Source: Candidatus Altarchaeum sp. CG2_30_32_3053 (GTDB lineage Archaea > Altiarchaeota > Altiarchaeia > Altiarchaeales > Altiarchaeaceae). Taken from it: a stretch of 42,453 bases of DNA. Of the stretch, positions 2,017 to 26,000 are shown one piece after another. The notes under the pieces are model-generated. The model was not told the DNA's origin. It was given only the letters and a program-made list of their open reading frames with translations, and made no database searches. Every line of letters starts with the position of its first letter. The first letter of the stretch is position 1. The translations under genes were made by a program, and so were the position numbers. The stretch is taken from positions 1 to 42,453 of the forward strand of contig MNZY01000237.1 of NCBI GenBank assembly GCA_001873845.1, given 5' to 3'.

Positions 2017-2922
2017 ATGCGAAATAAAATTTTGTATATTTTGGAATTTTTGATTTGTTTTATGATTTTGGTTAATATCACAAGTGCAGAACAATGCAGA
2101 GATGTTACATATATTAAGGGAACAGTATATGTAGGTGAAAGTCCATTAAATAACGGAGTAATAGTTGCAAAGTGTGAGGGATACAACGATTCACAAGAGA
2201 ATATAAAAGATGGAATATATATGATAGTACCTTTTGTAAATGCAAATGGCTCTTCAAATGTTGCACTGGAAATTTATGTTAATAGTGCACTCGTAAAAAC
2301 AGTGTATGTTAAAATTAACAACTGTGGAGAAAAAAAAGAAGGTTTTAATATAAATATAGATTCTGCCTCATTGCAAAACAATCAGACCAACAATGTAAAC
2401 CAGTCCAGCACATCACAAGACAGCCAAAGCAGCACAAACCAATCTGCCTCATCACAAAATCAGCAAAACAATCAGACCAATAATGTAAACCAGTCCAACA
2501 CATCACAAGACAGCCAAAGCAGCACAAACCAATTTACCTCATCACAAAATCAGCAAAACAACCAAACTAATGTATCAAACCAATCTGCCTCATCACAAAA
2601 TCAGCAAAACAACCAAACTAATGTATCAAACCAATCTGTCTCATCACAAAATCAGCAAACCAATCAGACCGATGTATCAAAAATTAATATATCATATCAA
2701 CCTGGCACATCTTCAACAAATCAAACCAATGCTGCAAATGCGAATCAACCTGACACAGCACAAATCAACCAGACCGATGTACCAAATATAAACCAAGAAA
2801 ACCTCTCAAATCAATCTACTCTGTCACAAAGTACAGATCAATTTATAACTTATGGTTTGTACTTGATAATTATTATTTTATTAATAATTTTATTTATATT
2901 TTTAATCAGGCACAAGAAATAA
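2017..2922 (+). CDS. Secreted protein: small beta-rich N-domain, Q/N/S/T tandem-repeat stalk, C-terminal TM anchor
   Basis: 301-aa ORF. Signal-like N-terminus is ILYILEFLICFMILVNITSA|EQC. The low-complexity repeats are NNQTNNVNQSSTSQDSQSSTNQSASSQNQQ x2 then NNQTNVSNQSASSQNQQ x2-3. The C-terminus is YGLYLIIIILLIILFIFLIRHKK (TM plus basic tail). Confidence 0.8.
   Translation: MRNKILYILEFLICFMILVNITSAEQCRDVTYIKGTVYVGESPLNNGVIVAKCEGYNDSQENIKDGIYMIVPFVNANGSSNVALEIYVNSALVKTVYVKINNCGEKKEGFNINIDSASLQNNQTNNVNQSSTSQDSQSSTNQSASSQNQQNNQTNNVNQSNTSQDSQSSTNQFTSSQNQQNNQTNVSNQSASSQNQQNNQTNVSNQSVSSQNQQTNQTDVSKINISYQPGTSSTNQTNAANANQPDTAQINQTDVPNINQENLSNQSTLSQSTDQFITYGLYLIIIILLIILFIFLIRHKK
2374..2655 (+). repeat. 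In-frame coding tandem repeats: 2 x 90 nt then 2 x 51 nt
   Basis: Copies at 2374-2463 and 2464-2553 (period 90) and at 2554-2604 and 2605-2655 (period 51) are near-identical at nucleotide level. A degenerate continuation follows. Confidence 0.9.
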
Positions 2923-9100: not shown

Positions 9101-12100
9101 TCTAATACTTCAAGAGATATTTCAAATATCGTAACTTTAAATTCAACTTCCCCAAAAATTATATGGAAGATATGGAATTTAAGTGTAAATGAAAGGATAA
9201 CAATAAATTTAACGGTATATGTTAGATCAGGCGCTGGAAGTGCAACGGGAGAGGTAAATACAAATAGAGTAAATGTCAGCAACAGAAATGAAAGTTATGA
9301 GGACAACATTTATGTTCAGAAAAATGCAACGACTGATGTAATAACAGTATTTACGCCAAACATAAAGGTTTCAAAGGTTTCTGATGGACCTACAGAACCA
9401 GGTGATTATGTTACCTTTAAAATTACAACAAATAATTTAAACCTTACAACAGATCATGCAACCTTATATAACATTTCAATTAAAGATGTTTTGCCACAAT
9501 GCTTTGATTATAATAATACAATAAATATTACTTATTACAGAAAAAAAGAAGGAACAACCTGCACTTATAAAAGATTACCAGGACCACCTGGTGGAGAGGC
9601 AAAAGCTTTAAATATTGTAAGCAATACAACATCAGGAAATTATATGAATGTTACATGGAATTTGACAAATATATCAAATTTAAGTCAATGTGATACAACA
9701 CAATTTAATGATTCACAATTACATCCAAACGAAACAATAGAAATTTATTTCAATGTTTATGTTAAAACATGTTCTAATAAATCGCCTACAGGAACAAATG
9801 TAACAAATGTTGCAATCCTACAAGGTTATGATGGAAATAATGTTAATTATGCTTATAATGGTTCTGCAAACATAACAGTTTATGAGCCAAATTTAGTTTT
9901 AACAAAAACGACAAATGCAACAAAAGCAGAGCCAGATGAAACCGTAAGATTTTGCCTAAATATCTCAAATCCTTCTCAGGCAAACGCATTAAATTTAGTA
10001 ATTCAGGATTCTTTGCCAAAGTATTGGAATTACAATGATACTACAACAATATATTATTATAGGGGAGAAAGTACAATTTTGGGCATTTCACTCGGGCCTG
10101 CAAATTATTCACATACATGGAATGAATTAAATACAACAATTACAGGAAATGCTGGAAACGGGCAAAACATAACATGGAATTTGTCTTTATATACAGATCA
10201 AACCACAACAGCGTGCTATTTAAATACAAGTGGAATTTATCAGGGCACATCTTCAGATGGAGATTGTAATAGTGTTGATTCATGTAATAGTAGTTCATGC
10301 ACCCCCCGTGTTTTCAATGACACTCAACTCGCTCCAAATGAATCTTTAATTTTATGCTTTAATGCGCGTGTTGAAACGCACGAAAACAAAACACAGATTG
10401 TAAATAATATTGGAAGGACAAATTATACTGATGGGGACAACGGACAATATGACGGGCAAGGCAACAGATATATGGCAATAGGAAACAAATCATTGGTTGT
10501 TAATCAGCCATATTTAGTTTTATATAAACTTGCAAATCAAAGTATTACAGAACCAGGAGGAAATAATTCCAATGCAACCTTATTTACATTAAATGTTACA
10601 AATCCTTCAAACGCAACTGCATATAACATTTCTGTAACTGATTTAATGCCTGTCGGATGGAACTATAATAACACAGTAAATATAACTTACAGGAGAAATA
10701 TTACAGTTTGCACCATTTCTGATGGTGTTGAAGTTGCATGTAATAGCTCAGAAGTTATTTATAATAGAACTTGGAACGAAACCGATATAAACATATCGCA
10801 AAGAACAGACAATGGTTATAATGTTACCTGGAATTTGAGCAAGTTGGGAACATCAGATCACCACGGTGTAAATGTAGGCATGATTCCTGTAAATGTAACT
10901 TGTAATGATGCCAATACAGGTCCAAATTCCTGCAATTGCTCTTTTCTTAATTTATCAGGAAATCAACGATGCAGGTCAGGAACAGGAGAATATTTGGAAA
11001 TCAGAGTTATAGCAACAACATGGGCAGATGCTGATGGAGGAATTAACGGCACCGGAGCAGAAAACCAGAACAATGTTACCGCACAAGGTCAGGATGGAAA
11101 CGGAACTCCGATAAACGCAAACTGGATTTTGAATGAAAGTGTTAATGTGACAAATGTTGAACCGTATCTAATTTTAAGCAAATCAGCAAATACAAGCATT
11201 GTGGGAATAGGAGAATATATTGAATTTTATTTGAATACAACGAACATAGGAAACGGAACTGCTATAAAGGTTAATGTGAGCGATGTTCTTCCTTATGGGT
11301 TTATTTATAATGACACAGATTACATAAGAATTGGAAATAGTGAATTAGATGTTTCGTTATTTGAGAAATGCAAATCAATAACATTTTGTCATAATGTAAT
11401 TAACCCGGAAAATTATCCAGGATGTTACTTAAATTGCTGTAATGAATCTTATAATCCAAACAAAGAAAATACATATTATTACAACAATTCCTGCAATATT
11501 ACAATTCAAACAACTTCAAATAAACAAAATGTTACATGGTATCTGAATGCAACTTTGTATCCAAAAGAAAGTATATTGATAAATTTCAGCGCTTATGTCA
11601 CTTCAAATGCGAGCACAGGAACAAACACAAACTTTGCTTATGCAAACGGAACATTTTTGAGCGGTGAACCCCTACCGGAAGCAGAAAATAAGGCAAATAT
11701 TACTTTAAACATTACTGTATGTAAGCCAAATTTAATCATAAATAAACAAATTTCAGATGTTGATTCTAAAACAAAAAAGATTAATATTACTGTTAAAAAT
11801 ATCGGCTGTGGAGATGCTTATGCTGTTGAAATTTCTGATGAATTGCCAATTGGATGGATATATTATTATACTTTAAGGGTTATAAAAGAAAATGCCACTG
11901 GCTCAAAATACGACATTCCGTATTCAATAATTCTCGGAAATCCCGTAATATGGAAGCCGTATGATTCAATAGACCCTTTAAATTTAAATCCGGATTTATA
12001 CGCAAACGAATCCATAAGCGTCATATTCTATGTGAAAATAACAGAAGATGCACGAGAAGGTAACAATACTGATTTTGCAAATGTTTCTTATAAAGATGCA

Positions 12101-15100
12101 GATGGAGGAGGGTATTCTACAAACACATCAAATAGATCCGATGTTAAAACGCCGATGGAAATTTCAAAAACAGCAAATGTCAGCACGGTTAAGAACGGGG
12201 ACTATGTTAACTTTTTGATACATGTTAAAAATCCGATTCAACGATATGATCCTTATACAGGACAGGAAATCAACTTTCCAGAAGGATGTATTTATAATTT
12301 AACAATTACTGATAAATTACCAGAAACATGGACATTTAATAATACTGAAATTATTAACGCAACATTAACCTATCCAGTCAACACAACATTAACCTTTAAT
12401 CCCATTACCCATCCTGATTATACAGAATCTTATACTCCAACAACAAACGAAATTCAATGGATATTGCACAAAAACCATACAAATTCAATTTACAACAATT
12501 CATTCTGTCCGGGTTCTGAATTATGGATAAATTTTACAGTTAAGGTTGGCGATAATGTTCCTGTTAATAGAATAGCGACAAATTATGTGAATATTACAGG
12601 AACAGATACCCATGGAAATTCGTGGACGCCTGCTAAAAATTCAACACAATTAAATGTTGTGGAAAATGCATTTTTAAATATAACAAAAGAAATTATTGAT
12701 AAAAGCCAAAGCTATAATATTGGAGAAATAATCAAATTTAAGATAAATGTTTCAAATCCAATGGCAAATGTACAGTACAATGTTACCGTAACTGATTATC
12801 TGCCCTGCGGTTTAAATATAACAAATGATTCTTATAAAGTTGAGCATAATACCTCTCAATACAATTGCAGTATATCAGGAGATGCCTGCGGAAATAATTG
12901 CGGAATGAAACTTACATGCAAATTTGATAATATTTCTCCTTATAACTACACTTTGATTTATGTAAATACAACTATTCTTACTTGCACGACCCAGGGACAA
13001 CACGACAATTATGTTAAGGCAGATGGCTTTAGGCCAGGCGAGATTTTTGAAAATCAGATTTTTGAAAAGCATGACCAAGTACAATTTACAATTAATCCAT
13101 TACAAGGAAGCATAAAATTGGACGCCCAGAAGAGCATAGGCAACTATATTTCCGGAGCGTTTGAACCAGGAGACAGAATAATTTTTGTCTTAAAGGCGTC
13201 AAATTTTGGTGATTCAGCAATTTCTAATGTGACTTTTACTGACGAATTACCAATTGGATTGATTTACGACCATTATGCTTCAAATCCTTTAAACATCGTT
13301 GAAAATGTAACTTTAACTAACAATGCAGAAGGCGGACAAATAGTTACATTTGAACTAAATAAAACACTTGGAAGCGGTGAGTCCTTAATTGTCTATATGT
13401 ATACAAATGTCACATCAAATATGAGCAAGGGGACAAATGTGAACAAACTGATCGTTGAAGGAAAACAGCCGAACGGAATGCCAATAAGAGATGAGGATAA
13501 TAAAGCATTTACAGTTGGAAAGCCAAAGCTGAGTATGATTAAAAAGGCATTAAACAAAACTGTAAAACCTGGAGAAGAAGTAACCTACACCGTACAAATA
13601 AAGAATATTGGCACCGGAACAGCATATAATTTAAATATAAGCGATATTTTTCCGCCAAACTGGAACAAAACAAAGGAAGAAATTAACATTACTCCAGAGC
13701 CAAAATCAAAAATTTTGTATTTTGACTTTGATACAGGAAATAGTCCTTTCTTTGGAAATAGCAATTCTCCAACAGCACCAGGTTATATTTCCATAACAAA
13801 AGAAACGCTATTGTATAATATTGAAACAGGATACGGATGGCTTACAAACCATACCTATCCTGAAGATAATTATAGTTCTTCTTTTAATTACAGCAAAATA
13901 ATGGATACTGGAGGGGATTTAAATCCTGATAGAGATAGAGACTATCATCATCAGGATATAAACAACACATTCATTATAGATCTTCCAACAAAAATAAATA
14001 CATTTACAGTTAGAACAGTATTCTGTAATCCTAATTCTTCTTATCAACATATTGATGTTAATATAACAACAAATTGTGGAAATTATTCTGTTTTGAGCGA
14101 TAAAAATGTAACTCCTGGTGAGTGTTTTATGAACACGACAGAAGTTAACGCAAGCGGACAATTGAATGTTACTCTCTTTTCAGATGCCAGCAACTGGATG
14201 ATTAATGCAATAATGGTTGATTCCGGAAAATTAATCGGATTTTTTCCAGGACAGACAGCCAATATTACCTATACATTAAAGGTTCCTGAAAACGAATCCT
14301 GCGGGCATTTATTTGCAAATGACATTAAAGTTAATTTTGACGACGGTATGGGATTCAATCAATATTTGGAAGCAACAGATGATGTTTTAACTGTTTGCGA
14401 TGTAAATTTAAATGTAAATAAGTTTATAAATACATTTGCAACAACATTTGCTCCCGGGGATACAATTCCTTTTGTAATAAATGTTTCAAATGATGGATTT
14501 AATAACTTATATAATGTAACTATTAATGATGATATTCCTACTGGAACAGAGATTAAAAACATTACTTATTACAACGGAACTAACTGGATATCAACAACAA
14601 CATTCCCTATTATTATTCCAGAACTTACAGGCAATAATTTTACCTTGATTTCGCTTTATTTAAATGTTACAAATACATCGTATGGAGAAAAGAAAAATCA
14701 TGTTTATGTAAGGGCTCAAAAAGCAGGAGGAGAATATGTCTGGGCAGAAGATGATGCCTTTTTTGTCATAGGAAAGCCAGAAGTAACGATTGAAAAGGAA
14801 AATTTAGTTCCTTATGCGCATCCAGGAGAAACTATTAAATATCAGGTAAAAGTTAAAAATAAAGGCAATACTTTAGCAAGAGATGTTATTTTTTTGGATT
14901 TCCTTCCGGATGATTTTGAAGTTGTAAATTTAACCTCAGATTGTATTGAAATAATGAAATTTGATTTTGGGCCAGAAAATCAGAAGGTCAAGGACGGATG
15001 GAAAAATGTAACGCCTTCAATGGTATATACAGCGGCAAGGGGTTATGGATTTGAAGCTGGAGATGCGCAAAAAGGACGTAATACAAGTCCATCAATAGAT

Positions 15101-18100
15101 GATGAAATGATGAATGATTCTGTGCATAGATACGGCGGCGGAACCATGTATTTTTTTGTAGATGTTCAAAACGGATTGTATAATGTGACATTTTATTATG
15201 ATAATAGTACATACGATGGATCATCTTTGTGGGACACACGCCTAAACGATGTGCTTATGGCAGGTCATGGTAGTAGCACAAACTGGACTTATGAAAATTT
15301 AAAGGTTACAAACAGCAGGATAAATTTTACAACCGATGGAAATAGTGGTGTAAGAATCCGCGGTCTTGAAATTAAACTGCTTTTCACTCCCACAAAAAAT
15401 TTGAATTATTCTCTTGGAAATATGGAGCCTGGAAAAGAATGTACTTTTGTATATGATGTTACGATTCCTGAGGGAACAAAGGATGGGGTTTATTATAACA
15501 ATGCATCAGCATCATGGAGAGACGGATTGAACAATTCATTTAAGGTTTATGCAAAGGACGATGTTGATGTTCATAACCTGGCAAATTTGGATATAAGTAA
15601 AACCATCGTTAATGTTGACCATAAATTTGAAACCAGAGATGTGATAATATTTAAAATAGAAGTTAGAAATACAGGAATTAACACGATTCACAATTTAACA
15701 TTTGAGGACAGGTTGCCGCTTGGAGTTGAATTTTTACATTTGTCTCCTGCATATAATACAAATGTCACAGTTATTGATGGAGGCGTAAGGGGACAAACAC
15801 TGGTTTTTAATCTACACAATGCAACAAATGAAAATAATAATATTTCGGGAAATTCTACACGAACATTTTATATGTATGCCATGGTTCATTCAAACGCTTC
15901 CGGCGGCAAAAATTTCAATTATATAAAAGTTAAAGGTTATGATATTAACGGAAAAGAGGAAAAGGACAGTGATTTGGTTGAATTTGACATAGGCAAGTCG
16001 CATGTGAGAATAAGCAAAAAGGCCTTAAATAAAACAGCAAAGCCAGGGGATATTATTGAATACGAAATTGAACTGGAAAATATAGGTGATGTGATTGCTT
16101 ACAGCTCAAAAATTTACAATATAACATTAGAAGAAGAACTTCCAGAAAACTGGACGATAGTAAATGCAACTTTAAAATACATTCCTACCCTTGCAACCCT
16201 TGCGTGTTATGATTTTTCAGCAAACGAGTCTGAAATTACAGGCAAATCGTGGAGCCCAATAGAACCCGGATGTTATCCTGTTTATAGAGAATGGTATAAT
16301 GAATCAAGGGGTTATGGATATTATTGGGCAGATGGTTATACTAGCATAGCTGAAAAGGATTATAATTACGAAGATGATTCTTTAAGGGATTATCATTACA
16401 GCTCAAGTGATGCAACCTTGAAATTTGACCTGCCTATTTTCTTGAACGAAACGATTAATGTTACTTTATATTTTTATTCTGTAGGTACAAACTATACTTT
16501 TAATGGCGTAAATGCAAGCGAAGATAATATAACATGGAAAAATGTTGTTGGAAGTACAACAGTTAATGCAGGAAATTTGCACACGGAAACATTTGAATTT
16601 AATACCTCAACAAAACAACTTTATCTGAAATTTATGAGAAGTGGTATTGGTGTAAATGATTGGTTTATAAACAAAATTGTTATTCAATATATCGGATTTG
16701 CAAATGCTTCTACCAATAAAACAATAACGATTCCTGTGCTTGTTCCAAAACAAAAGTCAATTTTTAACATGAGCGTTAAAGTTCCAGAATATGAATGTGA
16801 TGGAAGCTTTCCGAATTATGCTAAAATGAGTTATATGGATAAAGAAAAAACATTGGGAGAAGATTATGCAAAAGACGATGTTTTAATCCAATCACAGGCA
16901 TTTTTAAATGTAAGCAAAGAAATTTTGAATAAAAAGCAAGATTATTCAATTGGAGATGTAATTCAGTTTAAAATTAATGTTTCAAATCCGTACAGCAATT
17001 ACATTTACAATGTTTCGCTCATTGATGATTTAGCTTGTGGATTAAACATTACAGATGAGTCCTTCAATGTGAGTGGAAATACAACACCTTACACTTGCAG
17101 TGTACAGGGTAATGTTTGCGGAAACGGCTGCGGAATGAGTTTTACTTGTGCTCTTGGAACTTTAAAAGGAGAAAACAACATAATTGTTTATTTAAACGCA
17201 ACAGTCAAAGAATGCATGATTCCAGGACAGCATGATAATTATGTCAAAGTTGAGGGAAGAAGATGTAATATGACTTATGAAAAACACGACCACATTGAAT
17301 TTTCTATTGCCAATTACGGCGATTTGAATGTTATTAAGGAAAATAACGCATCTGGGGTATTACAGCCCGGAGAAAATGTTACCTATACAGTAAAACTTGG
17401 AAATTCAGGTGGAAGAAATTTAACTGTAAATATTACAGATAATGCACCTTTTGGATTTGTTTGTAATGCAACACAATACATAAATGTAATTATTCCTGCA
17501 AATTCTGAAATAGAGGTTAAATTTAACTGTCATGTAACATCAAATGCAAGTGAAGGCGCAAATGTGAATGAGGTTTATGTAAATGCAACCTCTGCTGACG
17601 GAAAGACATTTAAAGGACAGGCAACATCAACAGTAACACTAGGTAAGCCAAAAATAAGGATAATAAAGGAATCAATTTTAGATAAAGTTGTTCCAGGTAG
17701 TAATATAACTTACAGGATTACAATCACCAATGAAGGAAGGGCAAACGCTGCAAATATAACCATTACAGACATTCTTCCAGATGGATGGAGCTTTAAGGAC
17801 ATTACAACAAATGGATGTAATGTTGCTAATGAATCGCAAAATGGAAATATTATAAAATTTGTAAATGGAAGCATCAATGCGGCATCAGATAATTATCAGG
17901 TTGCTACCTGCTATTTTGAATTTAATGTCTCTGTTCCGGAAAATGAAACAAACGGAATTCATTATAATAAATTTAATGCTTCCTATAAAGATGGGGCAAA
18001 TACAACCTATAACATTTCAACACAGAAGGACAATGGAATAAATGTTCAAAATTTAATGCTTTATACTGAAAAGTTTGTTAATGTGAGTAATGCACAGCCC

Positions 18101-19915
18101 GGAGACGTTGTTAAATTTATAATTAAGGTTAAAAATATAGGTAATGAAGAAGTTAATGTAACATTATATGATACCTTACCTGTAGGATTTTCTTATGTAA
18201 ATAACACTGTGAAATATGTTGATGGAGCAAGCATTGCAAATGATAATATAAATTTTTCAGATAATTTAATAAACATTTCCCTTGGAAACATAGTGCAAGG
18301 AGAAGAAAAGTTCATTGAGTTTAATGCTTTAATTAATGATTCTGCTGTTGAAGGAGCAAATAAAAACAAAATTCTTGCAATAGCAAAATCAGAAAATAAA
18401 GAAATTAATTCTACATCTTATACATATTTAACAATCTACAAGCCAGAAATAGCAGTAATTAAATCAGCATCAAAATATTTTGTTGGTATGGGTGATGAAG
18501 TTGAATTTACCGTAAATATTTTAAATCCGAGTTATGCAAATTTGTACAACCTAATAATTAATGACACACTTCCAATGGGGTTCAATTATATAAATGGTTC
18601 ATCAAAATTAAATGGAATAAATATTTCAGACCCATCAAAAACCCATGAGTTTGCAAACGAACTGCAAAGACAAAATTTGGTCTGGAATGGTTCTGCTTTT
18701 GAGGTATTGCCCTCAAAGACAATAAAAATTTTAACTTACAGGGCAAGTGTTGTACATTGTAATATAAGTAGTGAAATGTATAACGAAGTGAATGTTTCAG
18801 GAACATACAGGGATGGAGAGCAGAATACTACAAAAACAGCAAATACAAAAACAAAAATAGTCGGATTATTGGCAGATGCAACACTCGTGAAATATTCTGA
18901 TAAAGATATTGCATCGTGGTTTGATATAATTACTTATACAATTGTTATAAAGACAAATGTAACAGGAGGCAGCAATGTACTTCCCTTAAATTTAACAGAC
19001 GCCCTTCCTCCATATTTAAAATACATTAATAATTCAGCAACAGTTGATGGAGAAAATATGAATCCAACAGTAACCGGAAACATAACACACGGGCAAAATT
19101 TAACATGGTACTTAAATGACACATTATTATCACCAGGAGCAAAAATGATTGTAACATACAGAGTTATGACATATCCCGGTGTGAATAGAACATTCAGCAA
19201 CAGGGCCACATTAAACTATGCGGACCCAAGCAGTGGATATAGTTTAACATTTACAGATAATTCAGAATTGGGAACAATGCCAAAACTACCTAATACTAAT
19301 GAAATTTATAATAAAACATTAGAACCATACACAAAAAACAACAATGTTTATGGGGTGAATAAAGGAATAGCAACATCTGATGAATGTATAAACGCAAATG
19401 TCATTCATTTAAAACAGGGATGGAATCTGATTTCATTGCCAACACAGCCAATAAACAATTCTCTTGATTATGTATTAATGCCAATAAACGGTAAATATAC
19501 AGATGTTTTTACATACAAAGATAGATGGGTTTACAAGAGCAGTTATATGAATAAATGGTTTGGCGATTTAAGTACAATGGATGTGGGAACAGGATACTGG
19601 ATTAAAGTTGAAGAAGATTGTGATTTGCCAATTATAGGATATTACATTGATGATTGGAATATCAAATTAAGCAAGGGATGGAATTTAATAGGACATATAG
19701 GGTGTGGAAATGCAAATATAAATAATTTGTCATTTACAGATGCAAATAACAATAATTACACAAATGCTTATACAGATATATTCACTTATGAAGATAAGTG
19801 GATATATAAGAGCGAATATATGAACAAATGGTTTGGCGACTTAAATTCATTAGTTCCAGGAAAGGGATATTGGATAAAAGTTGAAAATGATTATAATATA
19901 AGCATCACCAAATAA
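3158..19915 (+). CDS. Giant (5585 aa) secreted surface protein: signal peptide, non-repeat head, PPC-like domain, long DUF11-type repeat array with inserted beta-sandwich modules, C-terminal twin GWNL/GKGYW module
   Basis: A 16.8-kb uninterrupted ORF in stop-rich AT-rich DNA. The signal peptide is KIVYIIIFSIILLFGGNDVFA|VD. Many units resemble AEPGDYVNFTINITNTGNSTIYELTVDDTLPTGFEYISYS and VKPGEEVTYTVQIKNIGTGTAYNLNISDIFPPNW. N-x-S/T sequons occur throughout. Confidence 0.95.
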   Translation: MSKTKYIKQRKIVYIIIFSIILLFGGNDVFAVDYPNDAQLYLTNQTSVSAISSSFKENLNRVYDQYHEYADKFSAVDFTKNGQSYSNGTFISNITVPLNMANNFSVDQAYAPQKRNVCIFMSNVKDDSPQHNEVTYGRLPLQGFVSNFLGLDYTLVTETDIANGNLNNCDMFLIPAIQHGPSDNVTQWMDQIKENFTSTGLNNLKNFVLNGGSIFAESDGMYILQMANITANNTINLTDDNRLYGSSNKGYIQFQNFTNPASFGYNASNVSSYTIGDPLINLSVPGSNLTSIANFSGNLMYPNGSVNSYAGTAMAYKDYGNGRVYLSVPHLASNYETQRALAFIITYGISERMEFERSIELTDLPNYYDANNVLVIPALEENINLTVSALFGNTWNKTLNNVRMRININQEFQLDPNTDFCTQLNSSIYPNPTCAVVAPLSGTNYIEVNFSTLNPGLFNATYKISTRTGSTGLTNIGNVTINFTDVNGQNREVFQDRTYVNAMTRADLRVDKDSGLPTPLAAGSNYSAYIDIAIQNKGETPAINAIISDIIPNQINVTVRDEQGNWKNVTVNISVTCPSGWTSTNVMVYNYSNTRTGEIYPVINATNCSTIMNVSPHDNIDPIGRVDIVVHTPPRWWSETSDCTNNPPCNDNNCTWVNMSNVTAGDFFPFNLGGELHNDATVGPSNTSKVDYKDVWDRNYTSPLRELVDRLSVHGLPKIGNNMTVTKSIYMILQNGNVSDVMPANGTANVTIEIAIYPNNCVRYDYTNRSCNCSDAGNKTAYCYSESSFENATLIYLEDTIPKGVSYRLNITGVSLSPHQTQNTPFYTIYSWQNLSVPCGNVTKIYINATLEPLGTDGELTVNKGGSYMYYDVMLEREVVKLLPIDSVASEISQFSITKGTHPSLLPPGGQGKHVYHSLEIYDSPEMHQFPDPYYHSYGFRNGTVRTYTGGTLPYSTTTYHSIVNATNNFTIIHLTFSNTGNETWNISSLNISNITMRHFLNSPDFSSNFNITPNFDLPIIIGPGKNIMIYFNVTYNGSVPAQQIYEVNFNFSALNVPENFSISPAKIGVGNSTIYDYYDYGRNIIISDKLRSGVEYASTKYIYGACPAAVNETNYNSARNFNYSEKTGNAHAGTNITWNLSALEPSYNNSVTLPYVVNDSGTFITQPRFCILIDSLWLGGTTGTYPINLGANVTYTDDTWNEEKNASSNVPHTDLHGPLINVTKRITDIYVFIPPDNYCQYIYPYDPNRPNFTEPHPRISYNMTSMVCMMIHVRNDGDAVASNVTITDVLPPNSTYIYNSLNYQGCTLPSPRDSFRIAPSSINNDTPSENYTALNYSISDIAPGGTAKILVCVNVTPNETNGIAPGDNITINEPVNASFMSDLFPGDKFNTSNYEQLNASSNETILSINKTASHSSINATIPTLINLTINVTNIGYVMAEHVYIIDDIPLYNSTYQYSATINCVKVYLQNSSGIYESNNTCDDYGAGVSGIRGHIPHTGNIDVNYTYYGSYTTGNQGQDGYKYTLKYGVLSNLSVGASFIINVTLNVTINLSAENFQLNYNPLTRADNATLKEGPTVSVNVTVWGPRLNISKEVKKICPPPIDNTCVAACSDSGSGDGTSWENAKCLITNDNTTENNISETSNTSDQYYKYVLDGWSYVNITYATTALTGTLNLYTDWNGTYPNSTNFDCHKQIASGVLTSVSCISTRPLPPGTYYVLRNLTPNASGVKTVTGTISFKATCYSDQCWNKGYMIADQANPNNTIDLQFNVSNNLPWQEATLTAYNVTIYDELQNFVKVWDFNRWNNTPNNTNIQYICTNGTNGTLNIIENNNNLDEGILNFTVDSQGLMENCSLLFNVSVTYAPPCASNASPNYSGQNYSNPYWNNASIYDQTNHNYILNLNPRVKAHFFDWTEGNNLTEEVRWKKPYFNVTKTANTSQAEPGDYVNFTINITNTGNSTIYELTVDDTLPTGFEYISYSTISNTSRDISNIVTLNSTSPKIIWKIWNLSVNERITINLTVYVRSGAGSATGEVNTNRVNVSNRNESYEDNIYVQKNATTDVITVFTPNIKVSKVSDGPTEPGDYVTFKITTNNLNLTTDHATLYNISIKDVLPQCFDYNNTINITYYRKKEGTTCTYKRLPGPPGGEAKALNIVSNTTSGNYMNVTWNLTNISNLSQCDTTQFNDSQLHPNETIEIYFNVYVKTCSNKSPTGTNVTNVAILQGYDGNNVNYAYNGSANITVYEPNLVLTKTTNATKAEPDETVRFCLNISNPSQANALNLVIQDSLPKYWNYNDTTTIYYYRGESTILGISLGPANYSHTWNELNTTITGNAGNGQNITWNLSLYTDQTTTACYLNTSGIYQGTSSDGDCNSVDSCNSSSCTPRVFNDTQLAPNESLILCFNARVETHENKTQIVNNIGRTNYTDGDNGQYDGQGNRYMAIGNKSLVVNQPYLVLYKLANQSITEPGGNNSNATLFTLNVTNPSNATAYNISVTDLMPVGWNYNNTVNITYRRNITVCTISDGVEVACNSSEVIYNRTWNETDINISQRTDNGYNVTWNLSKLGTSDHHGVNVGMIPVNVTCNDANTGPNSCNCSFLNLSGNQRCRSGTGEYLEIRVIATTWADADGGINGTGAENQNNVTAQGQDGNGTPINANWILNESVNVTNVEPYLILSKSANTSIVGIGEYIEFYLNTTNIGNGTAIKVNVSDVLPYGFIYNDTDYIRIGNSELDVSLFEKCKSITFCHNVINPENYPGCYLNCCNESYNPNKENTYYYNNSCNITIQTTSNKQNVTWYLNATLYPKESILINFSAYVTSNASTGTNTNFAYANGTFLSGEPLPEAENKANITLNITVCKPNLIINKQISDVDSKTKKINITVKNIGCGDAYAVEISDELPIGWIYYYTLRVIKENATGSKYDIPYSIILGNPVIWKPYDSIDPLNLNPDLYANESISVIFYVKITEDAREGNNTDFANVSYKDADGGGYSTNTSNRSDVKTPMEISKTANVSTVKNGDYVNFLIHVKNPIQRYDPYTGQEINFPEGCIYNLTITDKLPETWTFNNTEIINATLTYPVNTTLTFNPITHPDYTESYTPTTNEIQWILHKNHTNSIYNNSFCPGSELWINFTVKVGDNVPVNRIATNYVNITGTDTHGNSWTPAKNSTQLNVVENAFLNITKEIIDKSQSYNIGEIIKFKINVSNPMANVQYNVTVTDYLPCGLNITNDSYKVEHNTSQYNCSISGDACGNNCGMKLTCKFDNISPYNYTLIYVNTTILTCTTQGQHDNYVKADGFRPGEIFENQIFEKHDQVQFTINPLQGSIKLDAQKSIGNYISGAFEPGDRIIFVLKASNFGDSAISNVTFTDELPIGLIYDHYASNPLNIVENVTLTNNAEGGQIVTFELNKTLGSGESLIVYMYTNVTSNMSKGTNVNKLIVEGKQPNGMPIRDEDNKAFTVGKPKLSMIKKALNKTVKPGEEVTYTVQIKNIGTGTAYNLNISDIFPPNWNKTKEEINITPEPKSKILYFDFDTGNSPFFGNSNSPTAPGYISITKETLLYNIETGYGWLTNHTYPEDNYSSSFNYSKIMDTGGDLNPDRDRDYHHQDINNTFIIDLPTKINTFTVRTVFCNPNSSYQHIDVNITTNCGNYSVLSDKNVTPGECFMNTTEVNASGQLNVTLFSDASNWMINAIMVDSGKLIGFFPGQTANITYTLKVPENESCGHLFANDIKVNFDDGMGFNQYLEATDDVLTVCDVNLNVNKFINTFATTFAPGDTIPFVINVSNDGFNNLYNVTINDDIPTGTEIKNITYYNGTNWISTTTFPIIIPELTGNNFTLISLYLNVTNTSYGEKKNHVYVRAQKAGGEYVWAEDDAFFVIGKPEVTIEKENLVPYAHPGETIKYQVKVKNKGNTLARDVIFLDFLPDDFEVVNLTSDCIEIMKFDFGPENQKVKDGWKNVTPSMVYTAARGYGFEAGDAQKGRNTSPSIDDEMMNDSVHRYGGGTMYFFVDVQNGLYNVTFYYDNSTYDGSSLWDTRLNDVLMAGHGSSTNWTYENLKVTNSRINFTTDGNSGVRIRGLEIKLLFTPTKNLNYSLGNMEPGKECTFVYDVTIPEGTKDGVYYNNASASWRDGLNNSFKVYAKDDVDVHNLANLDISKTIVNVDHKFETRDVIIFKIEVRNTGINTIHNLTFEDRLPLGVEFLHLSPAYNTNVTVIDGGVRGQTLVFNLHNATNENNNISGNSTRTFYMYAMVHSNASGGKNFNYIKVKGYDINGKEEKDSDLVEFDIGKSHVRISKKALNKTAKPGDIIEYEIELENIGDVIAYSSKIYNITLEEELPENWTIVNATLKYIPTLATLACYDFSANESEITGKSWSPIEPGCYPVYREWYNESRGYGYYWADGYTSIAEKDYNYEDDSLRDYHYSSSDATLKFDLPIFLNETINVTLYFYSVGTNYTFNGVNASEDNITWKNVVGSTTVNAGNLHTETFEFNTSTKQLYLKFMRSGIGVNDWFINKIVIQYIGFANASTNKTITIPVLVPKQKSIFNMSVKVPEYECDGSFPNYAKMSYMDKEKTLGEDYAKDDVLIQSQAFLNVSKEILNKKQDYSIGDVIQFKINVSNPYSNYIYNVSLIDDLACGLNITDESFNVSGNTTPYTCSVQGNVCGNGCGMSFTCALGTLKGENNIIVYLNATVKECMIPGQHDNYVKVEGRRCNMTYEKHDHIEFSIANYGDLNVIKENNASGVLQPGENVTYTVKLGNSGGRNLTVNITDNAPFGFVCNATQYINVIIPANSEIEVKFNCHVTSNASEGANVNEVYVNATSADGKTFKGQATSTVTLGKPKIRIIKESILDKVVPGSNITYRITITNEGRANAANITITDILPDGWSFKDITTNGCNVANESQNGNIIKFVNGSINAASDNYQVATCYFEFNVSVPENETNGIHYNKFNASYKDGANTTYNISTQKDNGINVQNLMLYTEKFVNVSNAQPGDVVKFIIKVKNIGNEEVNVTLYDTLPVGFSYVNNTVKYVDGASIANDNINFSDNLINISLGNIVQGEEKFIEFNALINDSAVEGANKNKILAIAKSENKEINSTSYTYLTIYKPEIAVIKSASKYFVGMGDEVEFTVNILNPSYANLYNLIINDTLPMGFNYINGSSKLNGINISDPSKTHEFANELQRQNLVWNGSAFEVLPSKTIKILTYRASVVHCNISSEMYNEVNVSGTYRDGEQNTTKTANTKTKIVGLLADATLVKYSDKDIASWFDIITYTIVIKTNVTGGSNVLPLNLTDALPPYLKYINNSATVDGENMNPTVTGNITHGQNLTWYLNDTLLSPGAKMIVTYRVMTYPGVNRTFSNRATLNYADPSSGYSLTFTDNSELGTMPKLPNTNEIYNKTLEPYTKNNNVYGVNKGIATSDECINANVIHLKQGWNLISLPTQPINNSLDYVLMPINGKYTDVFTYKDRWVYKSSYMNKWFGDLSTMDVGTGYWIKVEEDCDLPIIGYYIDDWNIKLSKGWNLIGHIGCGNANINNLSFTDANNNNYTNAYTDIFTYEDKWIYKSEYMNKWFGDLNSLVPGKGYWIKVENDYNISITK
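3503..4200 (+). other. Non-repeat head domain, possibly a class-I glutamine-amidotransferase-like / GldG-like fold
   Basis: The pattern VCIFMSN...LDYTLVTETDI...CDMFLIPAIQHG...LKNFVLNGGSIFAESDG recalls the 'D.l.i...l..fv..GG.l' layout of non-catalytic GATase1-like domains. This is a motif-level impression only. Confidence 0.25.
8093..8385 (+). other. Pre-peptidase C-terminal (PPC)-like beta-sandwich inside the giant protein
   Basis: SDQYYKYVLDGWSYVNITYATTALTGTLNLYTDWNGTYPNSTNFDC...PLPPGTYYVLRN matches the D.yY.f.l..g..v.i.l......l.ly ... GtYyv.v signature. Confidence 0.4.
13712..14225 (+). other. Inserted FDF...GYGW beta-sandwich (carbohydrate-binding-module-like) domain, copy 1, splitting a DUF11 unit
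   Basis: ILYFDFDTGNS...PGYISITKETLLYNIETGYGWL...DRDYHHQD..TFIIDLP...NWMINAIMV. It is flanked by a DUF11 N-half (KPGEEVTYTVQIKNIGTGTAYNLNISDIFPPNW) and C-half (GQTANITYTLKVPENESCGHLFAND). Confidence 0.5.
14945..15385 (+). other. Inserted FDFG...GYGF beta-sandwich domain, copy 2
   Basis: IEIMKFDFGPENQKVKDGWKNVTPSMVYTAARGYGFEAGDAQKGRN...MYFFVDVQNGLYNVTFYYD...VRIRGLEIK. It is again nested between DUF11 halves. Confidence 0.5.
16198..16700 (+). other. Inserted YDF...GYGYYW beta-sandwich domain, copy 3
   Basis: LACYDFSANESEITGKSWSPIEPGCYPVYREWYNESRGYGYYWADG...LRDYHYSS..TLKFDLP...INVTLYFY...DWFINKIVI. Confidence 0.5.
19403..19912 (+). other. C-terminal twin module (2 x ~80 aa) shared by all three giant proteins
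   Basis: IHLKQGWNLISLP...GKYTDVFTYKDRWVYKSSYMNKWFGDLSTMDVGTGYWIKVEEDC... then KLSKGWNLIGH...YTDIFTYEDKWIYKSEYMNKWFGDLNSLVPGKGYWIKVEND. The second copy starts near 19661. Confidence 0.85.
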
Positions 19916-20001: not shown

Positions 20002-23000
20002 ATGAATCCCAAAGTCAACATAAGGAATGTAGCATTCACATTTATATTTATTTCATCATTAGCTTTAGTTTTATTTGTTTTGAATGCTGATGCAGAATGT
20101 GCCTCGCCGGCATGTTGTGGTGTGTGTGAAAATTATATAAATGATAGTGCAAACATCAGCGTAAACTTTCCCGTATTGATTGTTAATAAAAGCGTAAATC
20201 CGGCAACATTTGAGCAGGGAGAGTTGGTAGAATTTAAGATTGAGGTTCTAAATATAGGAAATGTTTCTGCTTATGAGCTAAGTATGAAAGATATTTTAAA
20301 TGAAGATTTGGACTATGTTCAAAGCAAATATGATAATTCAAGCTCAAATTATCTGATATACAAGTTTGTATTTAATGTTACTGGAAATGGTGAATATTCA
20401 TGTCAAAAATCAGATGGGGGGTGGTTCTCCGATAGTTCACAATGTGTTCCAAAGGAGAATATTGACTTTCATTATTTATCTGATACTAATGAATTGACTT
20501 GGGGAAAATATGGAAGCTCAGGGGGAAAGGAATTACCTCCAAAGGTTGCTTATGTTATTAAATTTTATGCACGTGCAAAGGAAAATGCAAGTGCTGGAAA
20601 TTTAACAAATAATGTAACTATAAAAGCAAACTATGATCAACATCAATATGTGTGTACGGCACCGGCTTCGTGTCAAGGTGGTTCGTGCAAAGGTGCAGAT
20701 GGAGGAAGTTGCCCAAACAATGGTCTTTGTTACTGCGATAACTGTGTTTCTCAACCTTCCGGAGATTGCAGCGATACATCTATAAAATTGAGCGATCATT
20801 CTGATATTAATTTGCCGCCGAGCATAACTCCAAATTTAAATTCTTCGGCAAATTTTACAATCCTTCCGAAAAGCGAAATTTATATAACAAAGGGAATCAA
20901 TTCAACCGCAAATAAATTTACAGTCGGGGAAATCATCCCTTTTGTTTTAAATATAAATTCAAATTTAAATGAAACAAACGCTACATTGACAGATGTAAAA
21001 GTTACAGACAATTTGCCTTATGGAATTGAATTTTTAAATGCAACATTATGCAACGAAACAAATAATGCATTAAACTCAACTACACAACCACAATTAAATC
21101 AAAACAGCAGCGACGATCCGCAGGCAAGCACAATTCTTACATTCAATATTGGAAATTTAACAAAAGATGTATCAAATATTAAAATATGTATATATACAAA
21201 GGTTGCAAGCGATGCCTCAAACGCTTATGGTGCCCTGAAAAATGATGCCCGGGTTTATGCGAGCAATAATCAGACTTATGAAACAAAAAATCTGTCTGAT
21301 GCAGCAGAAAAATATTTTTACATACTAAAACCAGCGAGTTTGAAAATTTCAAAGAAAACACTAACAACAAATGTTGTTCCTAACTCAATAGCAACTTATG
21401 AAATAACTGTGTGGAATGAAGGCGACTCAGAAGCAGTAAATATAACGATTTTCGATCCTCTGCCATGTAATTTTACTTACATTAACAATTCGTGCAATGT
21501 TACTGAAAATAACACAGATACAAATTTAACATGTCCTGATGAAAACACAACAGAACCATCATTTAACATTTCAAAAATAGAAGGACATTCAAGGATCGTT
21601 TTTACATTTAATGTCTCTGTCCCTAATAATGTCAGCGGAATGTGTGGGAATACAATAGTTGCAGAGGCAAAAGATACATCTGGAAATAATCTTACTGTTA
21701 ATTATATTTCGCAGACATCTTATATTTATACAGAGCATGGCTTTGGCTATTTACAGGTCAATAAGGAAGTAATAAATAACAAACTGTTTGCGGTTGGAGA
21801 AATAGTACAATATAAAATCAAAGTAAGGAATTCTGGAAGTGTGCAATCAGTAAATAATGTTCAGTTAAAGGACTTTTTGCCAATGGGGATGAAATTTGCC
21901 AATATAAGCATTCAAAATTGCAATGTATCAAATATTACAGGAAATTATTCAACGAATGGAGAAATTTTAATATGTAATATAGGTAGTGTTGTTCCAAATG
22001 AAACAAAAATTTATTATCTGAACGCAACGGTAATGGATTATAAACCAGTAATGGTTAATAAGGTTGAGGTTAATGGAAGTACATCAAATGGAGAACAGTG
22101 GTTTAAAGATAATATTGCTGTGTATGTTGGGAAAGCAAAGTTAAAAATAGAAAAGAAAGCAAATAAGAATAATGTAAAGCCAGGTGAGAGTATATTTTAT
22201 ACTCTGAACATTTCAAATGAGGGTGATGCTCCAGCATATAATATTTCAATTAAAGATGTGCTGCCAAAAGGATGGAAGCCAACGGAGGGGGGGGAATGGT
22301 TATCTTACACATGCGAATTGACTTATACTTCTTCCCGTACAAGCTTTTCACAGACAACACTTTATTTTACTGGAAATGAATTGGCTCCGGGAGCAAGCTG
22401 TGAGATTAAGTATAGAGTCCAAGCTCCTTCCAATGCCTCGGGAGGGCTTTATCAAAATGACGCAGAAGTTAGTGGAAATGACTCTTTTGGGAATAAACTT
22501 GATGGCGATAAAACATATAAAAATGTATTTGTATACGAATTTAGAGATATGCGTTTAATAAAAGTTGCAGATAAAACAAACATCCGGGTAGGAGAAGATG
22601 TATTTTTTACAATTATTGTTACAAATACCGGAAATGTTCCATATAGCGTTTCTTTAACAGACGAACTTCCTTATGGATTTGAAAATAATACACCTATAAG
22701 TTATGATTTTGCTTTGGATAGGGGAGCATCAAAAACAATACATGTTGGTGCAACAGTCACGAACAATGCAATTCCGGGATTAAACGCAAATTGTGTAAAG
22801 GCAAGTGCTTATATGGGTAACAAACTGGTTTTAGAAAGAAAGGATTGTGCATTTGTTTATGTTTCCTCTCCATCAATTGATATTGAAAAGTGGACGATAA
22901 CTCCGACATTAAATCCCGGGGAAAATGCAACTTTCTTTGTGAGGGTGAAAAATAAAGGAACTGAGAATATAAGCAACCTAAATTTAACTGACAGCATTCC

Positions 23001-26000
23001 GGGAATTGGTATGAATAATGCAGATGTTTCTATTTCAAAGGTTAGCTGTTCAGCGAACATAACAACAGGAAATTATCCGAACATAGCTGGTGGAAGGTTA
23101 AACCGGGGAGAAGAGTGCGTAATCAGATATACTTTTAAATTGCCGGATAATGCATCGGGTCTGTATCAAAATATTGTATATGCAACAGCATCCACGGGAA
23201 CCGGAACAATAAATGAATCGGACAAAGCATATATCAATGTCCTGTATAATCCAAAATACGAGGTATGGAAGATCGCAGATGTCAGCAAAGTAGATATTGG
23301 TGAAAGTGTAAATTTCACAATTTTTGTCAGCAACGAAGGAAATGTACCTTTAAATTTAAGTATTTCAGATGTTCTTCCAAATAATTTCATTAACTTAACA
23401 TCATTAACTTTCATATATACCCTAAATCCCGGGAAAGATAAGAATTACACCGTTATCGCGAAACCAAATTCAGGCGCAGTTGATTCTGAAAACTGTGTGG
23501 TTGTAAACGCAACAGCCCCAAAAAATGAGGTCTTACATAAAACAGCTTGCACGGGAATTCACATCAAAAAGCCATTACTCATTATTCAAAAATGGACAAC
23601 AACCCCGTCAAGATTGCCAAACGAAAAAGCAGAATTTTATGTTATGATAAAAAACGACGGCGAGGGAATTGCAAAGAATGTAAAAGTTACAGATGAATCA
23701 GACATGACAAATTCAAGTGCTGTCATTTCTTATGAAGGAGATTGTGATTCTTTAACTATTGGCACATATCCAAGTTTAATTTCAAATGGAACTTTACATT
23801 CAAACCAATATTGCATCATTCATTATAATATGACGGTTCCAAATGTTGATGGATATACAAATATTGCAACTTTAAATGCAACCGATGCCGGGAATAAACA
23901 ATTGAATATACAAAAATCAGAAGCTTATGTTTTGGCATCCGGAATTACTCCTTCATTTTCTGTTGAGAAGTTCGTTTCCGATGGAAATCCTTTTGCAGAG
24001 AGGGGAACTTATAAGAATTTCACAGTTAAAGTGAAGAATCTTGGAAATGTTTATATAAATATTACAGATATTGATGAAACACCCCCTTATGGATTTAATT
24101 GCGCGGCTGGAAATATTGCCGGAACAACATTACAGCCGGGAGAAACAACAACAACAAATATTACCTGTTTTGTTAATAAGTCCGCTTTGGTAGGAGTTAA
24201 TGTTAATGAAGTCAGAGTATGGGCAATTGGAAATGGAGGAGTGAACATTTCCCAGAGTGATAACGAGTTTGTTATTGTTCAGGAGCCAAAATTAAAGATA
24301 GAAAAGAAAACAAATAAGAAAAATGCAAAGCCAGGAGATCCCATAACTTATACTCTGAACATTTCAAATGTGGGTGATGCTCCTGCATATAATATTTCAA
24401 TTAAAGATGTGCTGCCAAAAGGATGGAAGCCAACGGGGGGGGAATGGTTATCTTACACATGCGAATTGACTTATACTTCTTCCCGTACAAGCTTTTCACA
24501 GACAACACTTTATTTTACTGGAAATGAATTGGCTCCGGGAGCAAGTTGTAAGATTGTATATAGAATTCCGGTTCCCCCCACTACATCTACAGGAATTTAT
24601 ACAAATTACGCCACTGTTAGTGGTGCAGATAAATCAACAAAAATATTTGGATATAACGATGAAATTACAGCTTATATTAAGGGCTCACCTGTTCTTTATG
24701 TTTCTATGAGCGCGAATGCAACGTATGTAAAAAAAGGAGACACAGTTAAATTTACAACGAGAATTGAAAATTTAGGAGATGTTCAAATGAAAGATATTGT
24801 GGTAGAAATAATTCTCCCGCCGGGTTTTGAAAATTTAACCCAGACAAAAATTTCAGGATTATCATTAGATGCTGGAGCATCAACAGAAGTAAATGTAATA
24901 GCAAAGGTATTGAATGATACAAACGCGACGATCGGAGGAGCTCATGTGGCAAGGGTTTATGTAAATGCAACATCTTTTGGCGGAACAAAACTAAAAGCAG
25001 AAAGTTATGCAACTGTTTACATAACTTCAACACCACTTTCGCTGATTGGAGATATTGATGAAAAAACATTGTTTATGGGAAGTCATTTAAAAAACAGATT
25101 TATTGTTGTTAATCCTTCTATGTTTGATACGCGGGATATAAATTTAACAGTTAAATTGCCAAAGGGTTTAAAATACGATGTAAATTCAACGATGTTTAAC
25201 GGGGTTCCGTTATCGGATGATGAGAGTAATGGAATAGTTACTGAAGAAGACGGAAAACAAACCATTGAATGGAAAAATTTAAGCATGTATTCAAAGTCAG
25301 TTGGAATATTGTCATTTTCTGCTCTTGTTGAAGACGATGTTTCAGGAAAGGTTATTAATGCGTCAATAATTTACAATCAGCATGGAGAAATAAGTATAGT
25401 AGATACAAGCATAACAATAAATCAGGAATTTGTATCAAAGCCATTCTTTTATGTATTTCAAGACAAAGAAAAGGTAAATGTCAATGAGATAATTAAATAT
25501 ACAGTAATCGTTAATGATGAATTTGGCAGGTTAAATGATCCCTTTTTAAAATTAACAGCAAACGGTTTGAAAATTTTGGATGTGGAATTAAAAAACAATG
25601 AAGAAAATAGAACTTATAATGCTGTAATTAATGGAAAAATAATAAATTTAACAAATTTAACACATTCAATAGAAATAGATATCCATAGTTTACCTTTCCC
25701 AACGACAAGTCCAAAATTAAATTTAGATGCAGTTTTAACATACAACGACGGAAGTAAAATAATAAACTTACAGATAAATAAAATTACTGATCTATTAATT
25801 CCTCCGGAGGGAATAATAACAAATGTTGAATCGCAAAATTTAAATCTGTCAATAAATTTAAAGGATGTAAATTTAAATTATACTCTGCACCTAAAAAACG
25901 GGTGGAATTTAATTGGAATTCCGATAATGCCTGAGAAAACAAATTTAGAAGAAATATTGAAGCCAATTGAAGGGAAATATACAGATGTATTTACCTATAA

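Follow-up and report, generated by a model that had tools for sequence, protein, structure and literature searches.

A paired C-terminal domain of giant Altiarchaeum surface glycoproteins belongs to a widespread, unnamed family of extracellular modules

Three giant glycoproteins with a common paired tail

We analyzed a 42,453-nt stretch of contig MNZY01000237.1 from Candidatus Altarchaeum sp. CG2_30_32_3053 (assembly GCA_001873845.1), here called the window, in which three adjacent giant open reading frames (ORFs) on the + strand encode secreted glycoproteins that end in the same paired module. O1 (3158-19915, +; 5585 aa) combines DUF11/CLIPPER arrays with a galactose-binding-like domain. O2 (20002-26358, +; 2118 aa) has a signal peptide, a Cys cluster and ten DUF11/CLIPPER stretches, and O3 (26610-38168, +; 3852 aa) has hydrophobic N-terminal segments, a Cys cluster and 24 such stretches. 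Each protein closes with two consecutive units, all on the + strand: in O1 at 19400-19645 (unit 1, aa 5415-5496) and 19658-19912 (unit 2, aa 5501-5585, reaching the stop codon), in O2 at 25882-26127 (aa 1961-2042) and 26140-26355 (aa 2047-2118) and in O3 at 37680-37925 (aa 3691-3772) and 37938-38165 (aa 3777-3852). A previous reading of the window from sequence alone (the sequence-only reading) had described two tandem units of ~80 aa at these ends, which the translated ends bear out. The motifs L.L..GWNLI[SG], YTD[VI]F.Y.D[RK]W.YKS.YMNKWFG[DN]L and GKGYW[IV]KV occur twice per giant, the protein stops a few residues after the second copy, and our module boundaries (19400-19912, 25882-26355 and 37680-38165) differ by at most 3 nt from the earlier ones.

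As had been proposed, the module forms a discrete, conserved domain of its own and is separate from the repeat stalk: the pair profile matches the giants only at their ends, while DUF11 models miss the tails. A six-frame profile scan of the window found exactly three copies of the pair, one per giant at its end, and the three tails score 173-194 bits against a 50-sequence family profile. The pair is the sole non-stalk element common to O1, O2 and O3.

Aligning the six units gave 29 invariant columns. Amino-acid identity is 63-70% among the first units and 49-59% between first and second units; because the first units are closer to each other than to the second ones, the internal duplication is older than the three genes, and the two-half build reflects this ancient event. 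The expectation that the tails are better conserved than the sequence ahead of them was correct, with 57-62% amino-acid identity versus 24-44% upstream (three segments covering the 800 aa before the tails). Near-identity at the nucleotide level, also claimed previously, holds locally: the 35-nt string cited there is found at three sites (19805, 37812 and 38061), each with no more than one mismatch, against zero occurrences expected by chance, but over the whole tails nucleotide identity is 65-66%. Third-position identity is about 0.51, dN is 0.32-0.36, and dN/dS is about 0.15-0.27 with dS saturated (1.3-2.1). The tails are old paralogues under purifying selection. Recent gene conversion as the cause of their conservation was rejected because dS is saturated.

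In composition, the tails are as aromatic-rich as suggested, with about 5% Trp versus about 1% in the bodies. Their reported poverty in sequons needs rewording. They contain eight sequons where 28.7 would be expected at the body rate (p = 5.5e-6), but composition alone already predicts 6.4, not far from eight; the departure from composition lies in the bodies, which are approximately threefold enriched. The absence of a C-terminal hydrophobic helix or sorting motif was confirmed, the proteins ending in the hydrophilic sequences ...ENDYNISITK, ...EEHKIFSK and ...ENNEEQLVM. All three giants have hydrophobic signal-type segments at their N-termini; the signal peptides look cleavable, and another anchor is not apparent.

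Upstream of the tails, the bodies of all three giants are tandem arrays scoring above the Pfam gathering threshold for DUF11 (PF01345), with 265 bits for O2 (ten stretches), 653 bits for O3 (24 stretches) and 101 and 230 bits for the two halves of O1. O2 and O3 additionally match related Ig-like Pfam models. DUF11, recently renamed CLIPPER, is a CnaA-like domain that forms the stalks of fibrillar adhesins and in many cases contains an isopeptide bond; recognisable partner domains are rare in archaeal DUF11 proteins (PMC12617251). The O1 stalk includes the galactose-binding-like domain AGA-YXIM_GBD (E 3.8e-7) at ~14957-15349 (aa ~3934-4064), while the N-terminal ~1900 residues of O1 (3158-~8900) have no Pfam match and may constitute a separate undescribed head region. 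Directly after the signal peptide, O2 (~20090-20160, aa ~30-55) and O3 (~26890-26960, aa ~95-118) carry a Cys cluster, of which a similar version is found in the Altiarchaeum homologue P0260 (sequences ECASPACCGVCENYINDSANISV, AGGCCCYAGSCLNEINDTANVSA and AGCCCYADSCLNLIDGSVNVSA). This cluster could serve for N-terminal cross-linking or attachment, a possibility relevant to which fibre end faces the cell. A 165-aa antisense ORF within O3 (31727-32224, -) most likely arose by chance in the AT-rich repeat DNA.

The entire window is an island of surface glycoprotein genes. Ahead of O1, at 2017-2922 (+), protein B is a secreted 301-aa protein with long Q/N/S/T-rich tandem repeats (NQTNNVNQS.TSQDSQSSTNQ...) and a C-terminal transmembrane helix with a basic tail of the conventional type. 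The organism therefore uses C-terminal membrane anchors for some surface proteins, the giants not among them. Following O3, protein C (38274-39557, +) is Cys-rich and sequon-rich, with a weak dockerin-like C-terminus that scores below cutoff (PF00404, E 0.0033). The last secreted ORF (39637-42453, +; at least 940 aa) resembles protein C at its N-terminus, has N/S-rich repeats and extends past the right end of the window. The Joint Genome Institute (JGI) metagenome 3300025035 includes a contig that overlaps the window.

Family size, pairing and placement

To delimit the family, we used a profile of the six window units in an exhaustive HMMER search against 1.84 billion representative proteins (50% identity clusters). 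This search returned 6,116 clusters at E ≤ 0.001, of which 997 had E ≤ 1e-10 and 22 had E ≤ 1e-30. The nearest relatives come from a groundwater biofilm metagenome, MSIBF, which is the dataset of Ca. Altiarchaeum hamiconexum; among Altiarchaeum homologues, P0007 (CEG13686.1, UniRef A0A098EDU7) is 79% identical to the O3 tail. Its UniRef name, 'FHA domain-containing protein', looks like an automatic mis-annotation, since Pfam shows only DUF11-type domains. The hamus was considered as a possible connection and rejected: the hamus subunit described in the literature has an S_layer_N-type N-terminus and other locus tags and is a different protein, and no connection was found. Another close relative lies in a Ca. 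Altarchaeaceae metagenome-assembled genome (MAG), where a tail fragment is followed by another DUF11 giant. Wider named members include dnl_22140 of Desulfonema limicola and proteins from Desulfobacterales, Methanosarcinales, a Bacteroidetes MAG and Ca. Cloacimonadota.

Even two peptide patterns, scanned against species-representative genomes, sufficed to confirm 161 stretches. The members span about 20 bacterial and archaeal lineages. On the bacterial side these comprise Desulfobacterota, including Desulfonema magnum and one Desulfatiglandales genome with five loci, Bacteroidota, Nitrospirota (Ca. Magnetobacterium), Nitrospinae, WOR-3, Patescibacteria, Acidobacteriota, Chloroflexota, Ignavibacteria, Zixibacteria, Krumholzibacteriia, Victivallaceae and Clostridia. 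The archaeal carriers belong to Methanosarcinales, Altiarchaeota (five MAGs), Woesearchaeota, Nanohalarchaeota and Nanoarchaeota. Scanning the genomes with the narrow Altiarchaeal motif YMNKWFG found no relative. At one locus, the TARA marine scaffold L003, an in-frame TAG (4974-4976) interrupts unit 1 and the domain resumes afterwards in the same frame, which could reflect a pseudogene, an assembly error or stop-codon recoding.

Pairing is nearly universal. Among 154 proteins, 146 contain two units, three contain four and one contains ten, so that a single protein can hold up to five pairs; the linker is about 6 aa. The exceptions are P0064, with three units, and three contig-end fragments with one. 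An independent set of 97 ORFs taken from 79 genome loci obeys the same rule, and the consensus sequences of unit 1 and unit 2 are distinct across the family. The ~80-aa units, previously presented as a repeat, are thus better described as halves of one obligate pair, in agreement with the rigid body predicted by the structural model described below.

The sequence-only reading had proposed checking whether the module always sits at the extreme C-terminus. This is its usual position (128 of the 154 proteins, with a gap of 0-11 aa), but it follows an N-terminal signal peptide in 15 and is internal in 11. In the 97 genome ORFs, 73 copies are C-terminal, four N-terminal and 13 internal, with seven undetermined, so that 73 of 90 placed ORFs show the C-terminal arrangement. 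Some secreted proteins consist of a signal peptide and the pair, standing alone (P0103, P0105 and P0032). All carriers are secreted, and the suspected tie to secreted proteins is therefore upheld.

The fusion partners are diverse. C-terminal pairs are preceded by DUF11, PKD, fn3 or TSP3 stalks and by subtilase, C10 and S41 peptidase, amidase, NosD/beta-helix and other domains. N-terminal pairs are followed by alginate lyase, subtilase, alpha/beta-hydrolase, transglutaminase-like, BNR and papain domains. Internal copies are found in RHS-repeat proteins, a C25 peptidase, an S41/PDZ protease and a 2384-aa Altiarchaeales protein with C39-like, DUF11, DUF2341, MAM and subtilase domains. Overall, the partners include peptidases of the C1, C10, C25 and S41 families, and DUF11 was present in only seven of 30 family members checked. 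In five proteins, the pair precedes a terminal, genuine C-terminal domain (CTD) of the type IX secretion system (T9SS): P0052, P0135, L071 (Ignavibacteria), L073 (Zixibacteria) and L076 (Krumholzibacteriia). In RHS-repeat proteins of ~1950 aa (L052, L053, L055, L065 and L066 from Acidobacteriota, and P0095), the pair is located near the N-terminus, at aa ~200-520, before the RHS shell; in polymorphic toxins, the region ahead of this shell usually carries targeting or trafficking domains.

As in the window, two or three pair-bearing genes are adjacent at about 18 of the 79 loci. Across these 79 neighborhoods no partner gene is universally conserved; the only recurring neighbors, within Desulfobacterota, are other PKD-type surface proteins.

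Predicted structure and relation to named families

We modeled the O3 tail (37668-38165, 166 aa) with AlphaFold using a 123-sequence alignment. The model has a predicted local distance difference test (pLDDT) score of 93.6 and a predicted template modeling (pTM) score of 0.88 and is all-beta, with ~7-8 strands per unit and one short helix; a poor single-sequence model (pLDDT 47) was discarded. High pTM over the full length, together with strict pairing, indicates that the pair would form one rigid pseudo-dimeric body. Twenty-nine positions are conserved in 80% or more of the family; 22 of them lie in strands (GWNL, W and GYW), and the GWNL/W/GYW residues thus form a framework in the model. The beta4-beta5 hairpin VYKSEYMNKWFGD, by contrast with this framework, is invariant in the six window units and variable across the family, which makes it a candidate specificity surface.

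Structure comparison covered the PDB and viral models. Foldseek returned no PDB match at E ≤ 0.001, the best values being an E of 0.019 and a query-normalised TM score of 0.25. In the viral model library (BFVD), the one real match was to a 587-aa protein of an uncultured marine phage, named 'putative hemin binding protein' (E 4.8e-5, query-normalised TM score 0.63); tblastn against phage records found no family member. As modeled, the module may represent a new fold, which we regard as a lead.

The statement of the sequence-only reading that the module cannot be assigned to a named family stood up when the three tails and 50 diverse pairs were scanned against Pfam and NCBIfam, with nothing exceeding threshold. 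Sub-threshold, non-recurrent matches to DUF4811, Agglutinin, DUF1737 and choice_anch_R were rejected as noise. The T9SS CTD (PF18962/TIGR04183, Por_Secre_tail) had no profile match in the tails or the 50 pairs at E ≤ 1-10, and CW_binding_1, LysM and GW modules were absent from Pfam scans at E ≤ 10 (tails) or E ≤ 1 (50 pairs). Likewise, tails and pairs gave no Pfam match to SLH (PF00395), the model being all-beta with two ~80-aa units, to PPC (PF04151) or to cohesin and dockerin, and no cohesin structure appeared among the Foldseek PDB matches. The giant C-termini are hydrophilic and match no NCBIfam sorting model, leaving no sign of an archaeosortase/PGF-CTERM-type signal; DUF11 and related models do not match the tails. 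A profile search of PDB sequences gave no match at E ≤ 10, and a full-text literature search for the motifs found no paper. In all three tails, two consecutive GWNL...W...GYW units with a ~6-aa linker sit on a secreted protein, the features that define the unnamed pair family.

These data establish that the last ~165 residues of each giant are one autonomous all-beta domain, an obligate pseudo-dimer of two differentiated ~80-aa halves, and that the pair is a member of a large family, as yet unnamed, of accessory modules that act outside the cell and are common to bacteria and archaea.

Candidate roles and known systems

What this domain does was weighed against its distribution. A secretion or sorting signal, read by an export or attachment machine as are T9SS CTD, PGF-CTERM and PEP-CTERM, would suit the mostly extreme C-terminal position and the secretion of all carriers, and the sequence-only reading had offered secretion recognition and the T9SS CTD as analogies. 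This proposal is close to refuted. The pair is not a secretion or sorting tag, because it coexists with true sorting domains (the T9SS CTDs that follow it in five proteins), tolerates any position, including directly after the signal peptide (15 of 154) and internally (11 of 154) and in as many as five pairs within one protein, stands alone and is present in organisms with unrelated export systems, among them archaea and monoderms that lack a T9SS. Moreover, it is a folded domain of 165 aa with neither a transmembrane helix nor a motif tail, and no machinery gene is conserved nearby. Removal after export, as a C-terminal propeptide or folding helper resembling PPC, would explain its frequent C-terminal position on secreted proteases (S8, C1, C10 and S41), and the tandem collagen-binding, PPC-type domains of ColG are among the weak Foldseek matches (E 0.088). 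That match is non-significant, however (TM 0.17), PPC has no Pfam match, most carriers are non-enzymes, and stand-alone, N-terminal and internal copies exist; we consider a propeptide very improbable. Refuted is the possibility that the pair represents nothing special but the last two diverged Ig-like stalk repeats of a DUF11 array. It is all-beta, built of ~80-aa units and adjoins a beta-sandwich repeat array, yet DUF11 and related models miss the tail, the pair profile matches nowhere else in the giants, the tail is far better conserved than the stalk, and most family members are without DUF11.

Two other explanations retain more weight. The pair could be a dedicated SLH-like cell-surface anchor that binds the envelope of its own producer non-covalently and forms the cell-proximal foot of the giants. 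About 80% of proteins carry it at the extreme C-terminus, the giants have seemingly cleavable signal peptides and no other anchor, and the conventional transmembrane anchor of neighboring protein B means that the giants need something else. A conserved tail with variable N-terminal regions is also the usual anchor-and-head layout of fibrillar adhesins (PMC12617251). On the other hand, the carriers range over diderms, monoderms, the candidate phyla radiation (CPR), DPANN and double-membrane archaea, which have no common envelope polymer; the pair coexists with T9SS CTDs, is fused N-terminally to enzymes and occurs in stand-alone secreted form, and the Cys cluster after the O2 and O3 signal peptides could instead be the proximal attachment. 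On balance, we regard such an anchor as rather unlikely. More doubtful still is a co-assembly role, in which pairs would bind each other, homo- or heterotypically, and join secreted proteins into a fibre bundle or matrix. Adjacent pair-bearing genes in the window and at the 18 or so loci noted above are consistent with it, stand-alone pairs could serve as adaptors, the subfamily-specific invariant hairpin could be a matching interface, and independence of envelope type fits the wide range. Yet local duplication also produces gene adjacency, the 2.6-fold length difference among the giants is awkward for a regular bundle, and the neighborhoods hold no conserved partner gene.

The reading that we tentatively favor, at somewhat less than an even chance, is a general, non-catalytic binding or tether module that holds its carrier on an extracellular target. 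By analogy with SLH triplets or carbohydrate-binding modules, the pair would bind without catalysis and fix a secreted carrier onto something outside the cell, most likely the cell envelope, the biofilm matrix or another surface rich in glycans. The GWNL/W/GYW residues would supply the beta framework and the hairpin VYKSEYMNKWFGD the candidate specificity surface. In O1, O2 and O3, the pair would be the common tether at the C-terminal end of a CLIPPER stalk, because it is the sole non-stalk part that all three share, and the differing N-terminal regions would carry the individual functions; both the ligand and the orientation in these proteins are inferred. The glycan-free tail, exempt from the threefold sequon enrichment of the body, counts for binding, and the shared tail with differing N-terminal regions fits the anchor-and-head layout. 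The earlier comparison with SLH and cell-wall-binding repeats survives as a description of behavior, that of position-tolerant accessory modules.

Several points weigh against a tether. Known carbohydrate-binding and lectin folds were not matched in the Foldseek PDB search (best E 0.019, TM ≤ 0.25). The carrier taxa cover every kind of envelope, making one common envelope ligand unlikely, and as T9SS CTDs already attach or release cargo, a pure anchor role would be superfluous where such a CTD is present. Pairs that stand alone carry no cargo that could be tethered, the adjacent pair-bearing genes fit pair-pair co-assembly equally well, and ligand, partner and binding site are all putative. 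An own-surface anchor, a distal glycan or matrix binder and pair-pair co-assembly stand alongside one another as candidate options.

A bolder version of the tether, which we think unlikely as a whole, is that the pair is a new fold and serves as a portable module for adhesion or tethering, which bacteria and archaea of anoxic sediment and groundwater have exchanged horizontally. If true, the ligand could be community-wide, for example a matrix glycan, a mineral-associated polymer or another pair, and the module would mediate cell-cell or cell-matrix cohesion in biofilms and syntrophic consortia, including the Altiarchaeum biofilm.

Thousands of secreted proteins carry this domain without a database name, and their hosts are poorly studied anaerobes, among them Desulfobacterota, Altiarchaeota, DPANN, CPR, Acidobacteriota and Chloroflexota. 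Giant adhesins, proteases, lyases and RHS toxins are among the carriers. With the family defined, these proteins could be annotated better and the partner-domain gap of archaeal CLIPPER adhesins would be filled, and the domain offers a compact, confidently modeled and apparently new beta fold. Identity of the ligand would show how the hosts fix enzymes and fibres to a surface or matrix. Since cultivated Desulfonema species carry the pair, experiments are feasible.

Among known systems, SLH triplets are similar in being an obligate multi-repeat unit that forms one pseudo-symmetric, non-catalytic body, placed N- or C-terminally on varied secreted proteins (enzymes, S-layer proteins and adhesins) to keep cargo on the cell surface. 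They differ in consisting of three ~55-aa helical repeats that bind a pyruvylated secondary cell-wall polymer in a limited set of bacteria, whereas the pair has two ~80-aa all-beta repeats, occurs in bacteria and archaea and has no sequence or fold match to SLH. Carbohydrate-binding modules (CBMs) and lectin-like domains such as CBM32 and BACON are likewise position-tolerant, aromatic-rich beta modules on secreted hydrolases and adhesins, sometimes repeated within one protein and sometimes stand-alone. No model or structure match connects them to the pair, however, with CBM32 reaching only Foldseek E values of 0.5-0.8 (TM about 0.2) and the Agglutinin Pfam model remaining below cutoff, and strict pairing of units is unusual for CBMs. 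The T9SS CTD (Por_Secre_tail/FlgD_ig) has units of ~80 aa with ~7 strands, a G-x-Y-type motif near the unit's end and a usually C-terminal location on secreted proteins. It differs in having no profile match to the pair, which is present in archaea, Chloroflexota and Patescibacteria, has N-terminal and internal copies and coexists with a CTD placed after it. The tandem collagen-binding domains of ColG (PPC; PDB 5IKU), which act as a substrate tether, are like the pair in being small beta domains with pseudo-two-fold symmetry at the C-terminus of secreted proteases, but the sole link to them is the non-significant Foldseek match mentioned above (E 0.088), with no Pfam PPC match.

A further comparable setting is that of the CLIPPER/DUF11 fibrillar adhesins (PMC12617251). 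The bodies of O1, O2 and O3 are CLIPPER arrays, and the proteins are similarly long, secreted and stalk-like with a distinct terminal module. Unlike the giants, the published examples end in OmpA-like, LPXTG or archaeosortase signals (PMC12617251). The pair is one unrecognised partner of archaeal DUF11 proteins. As an accessory binding module of secreted proteins it would be of a familiar kind, while its family is undescribed and its fold possibly so.

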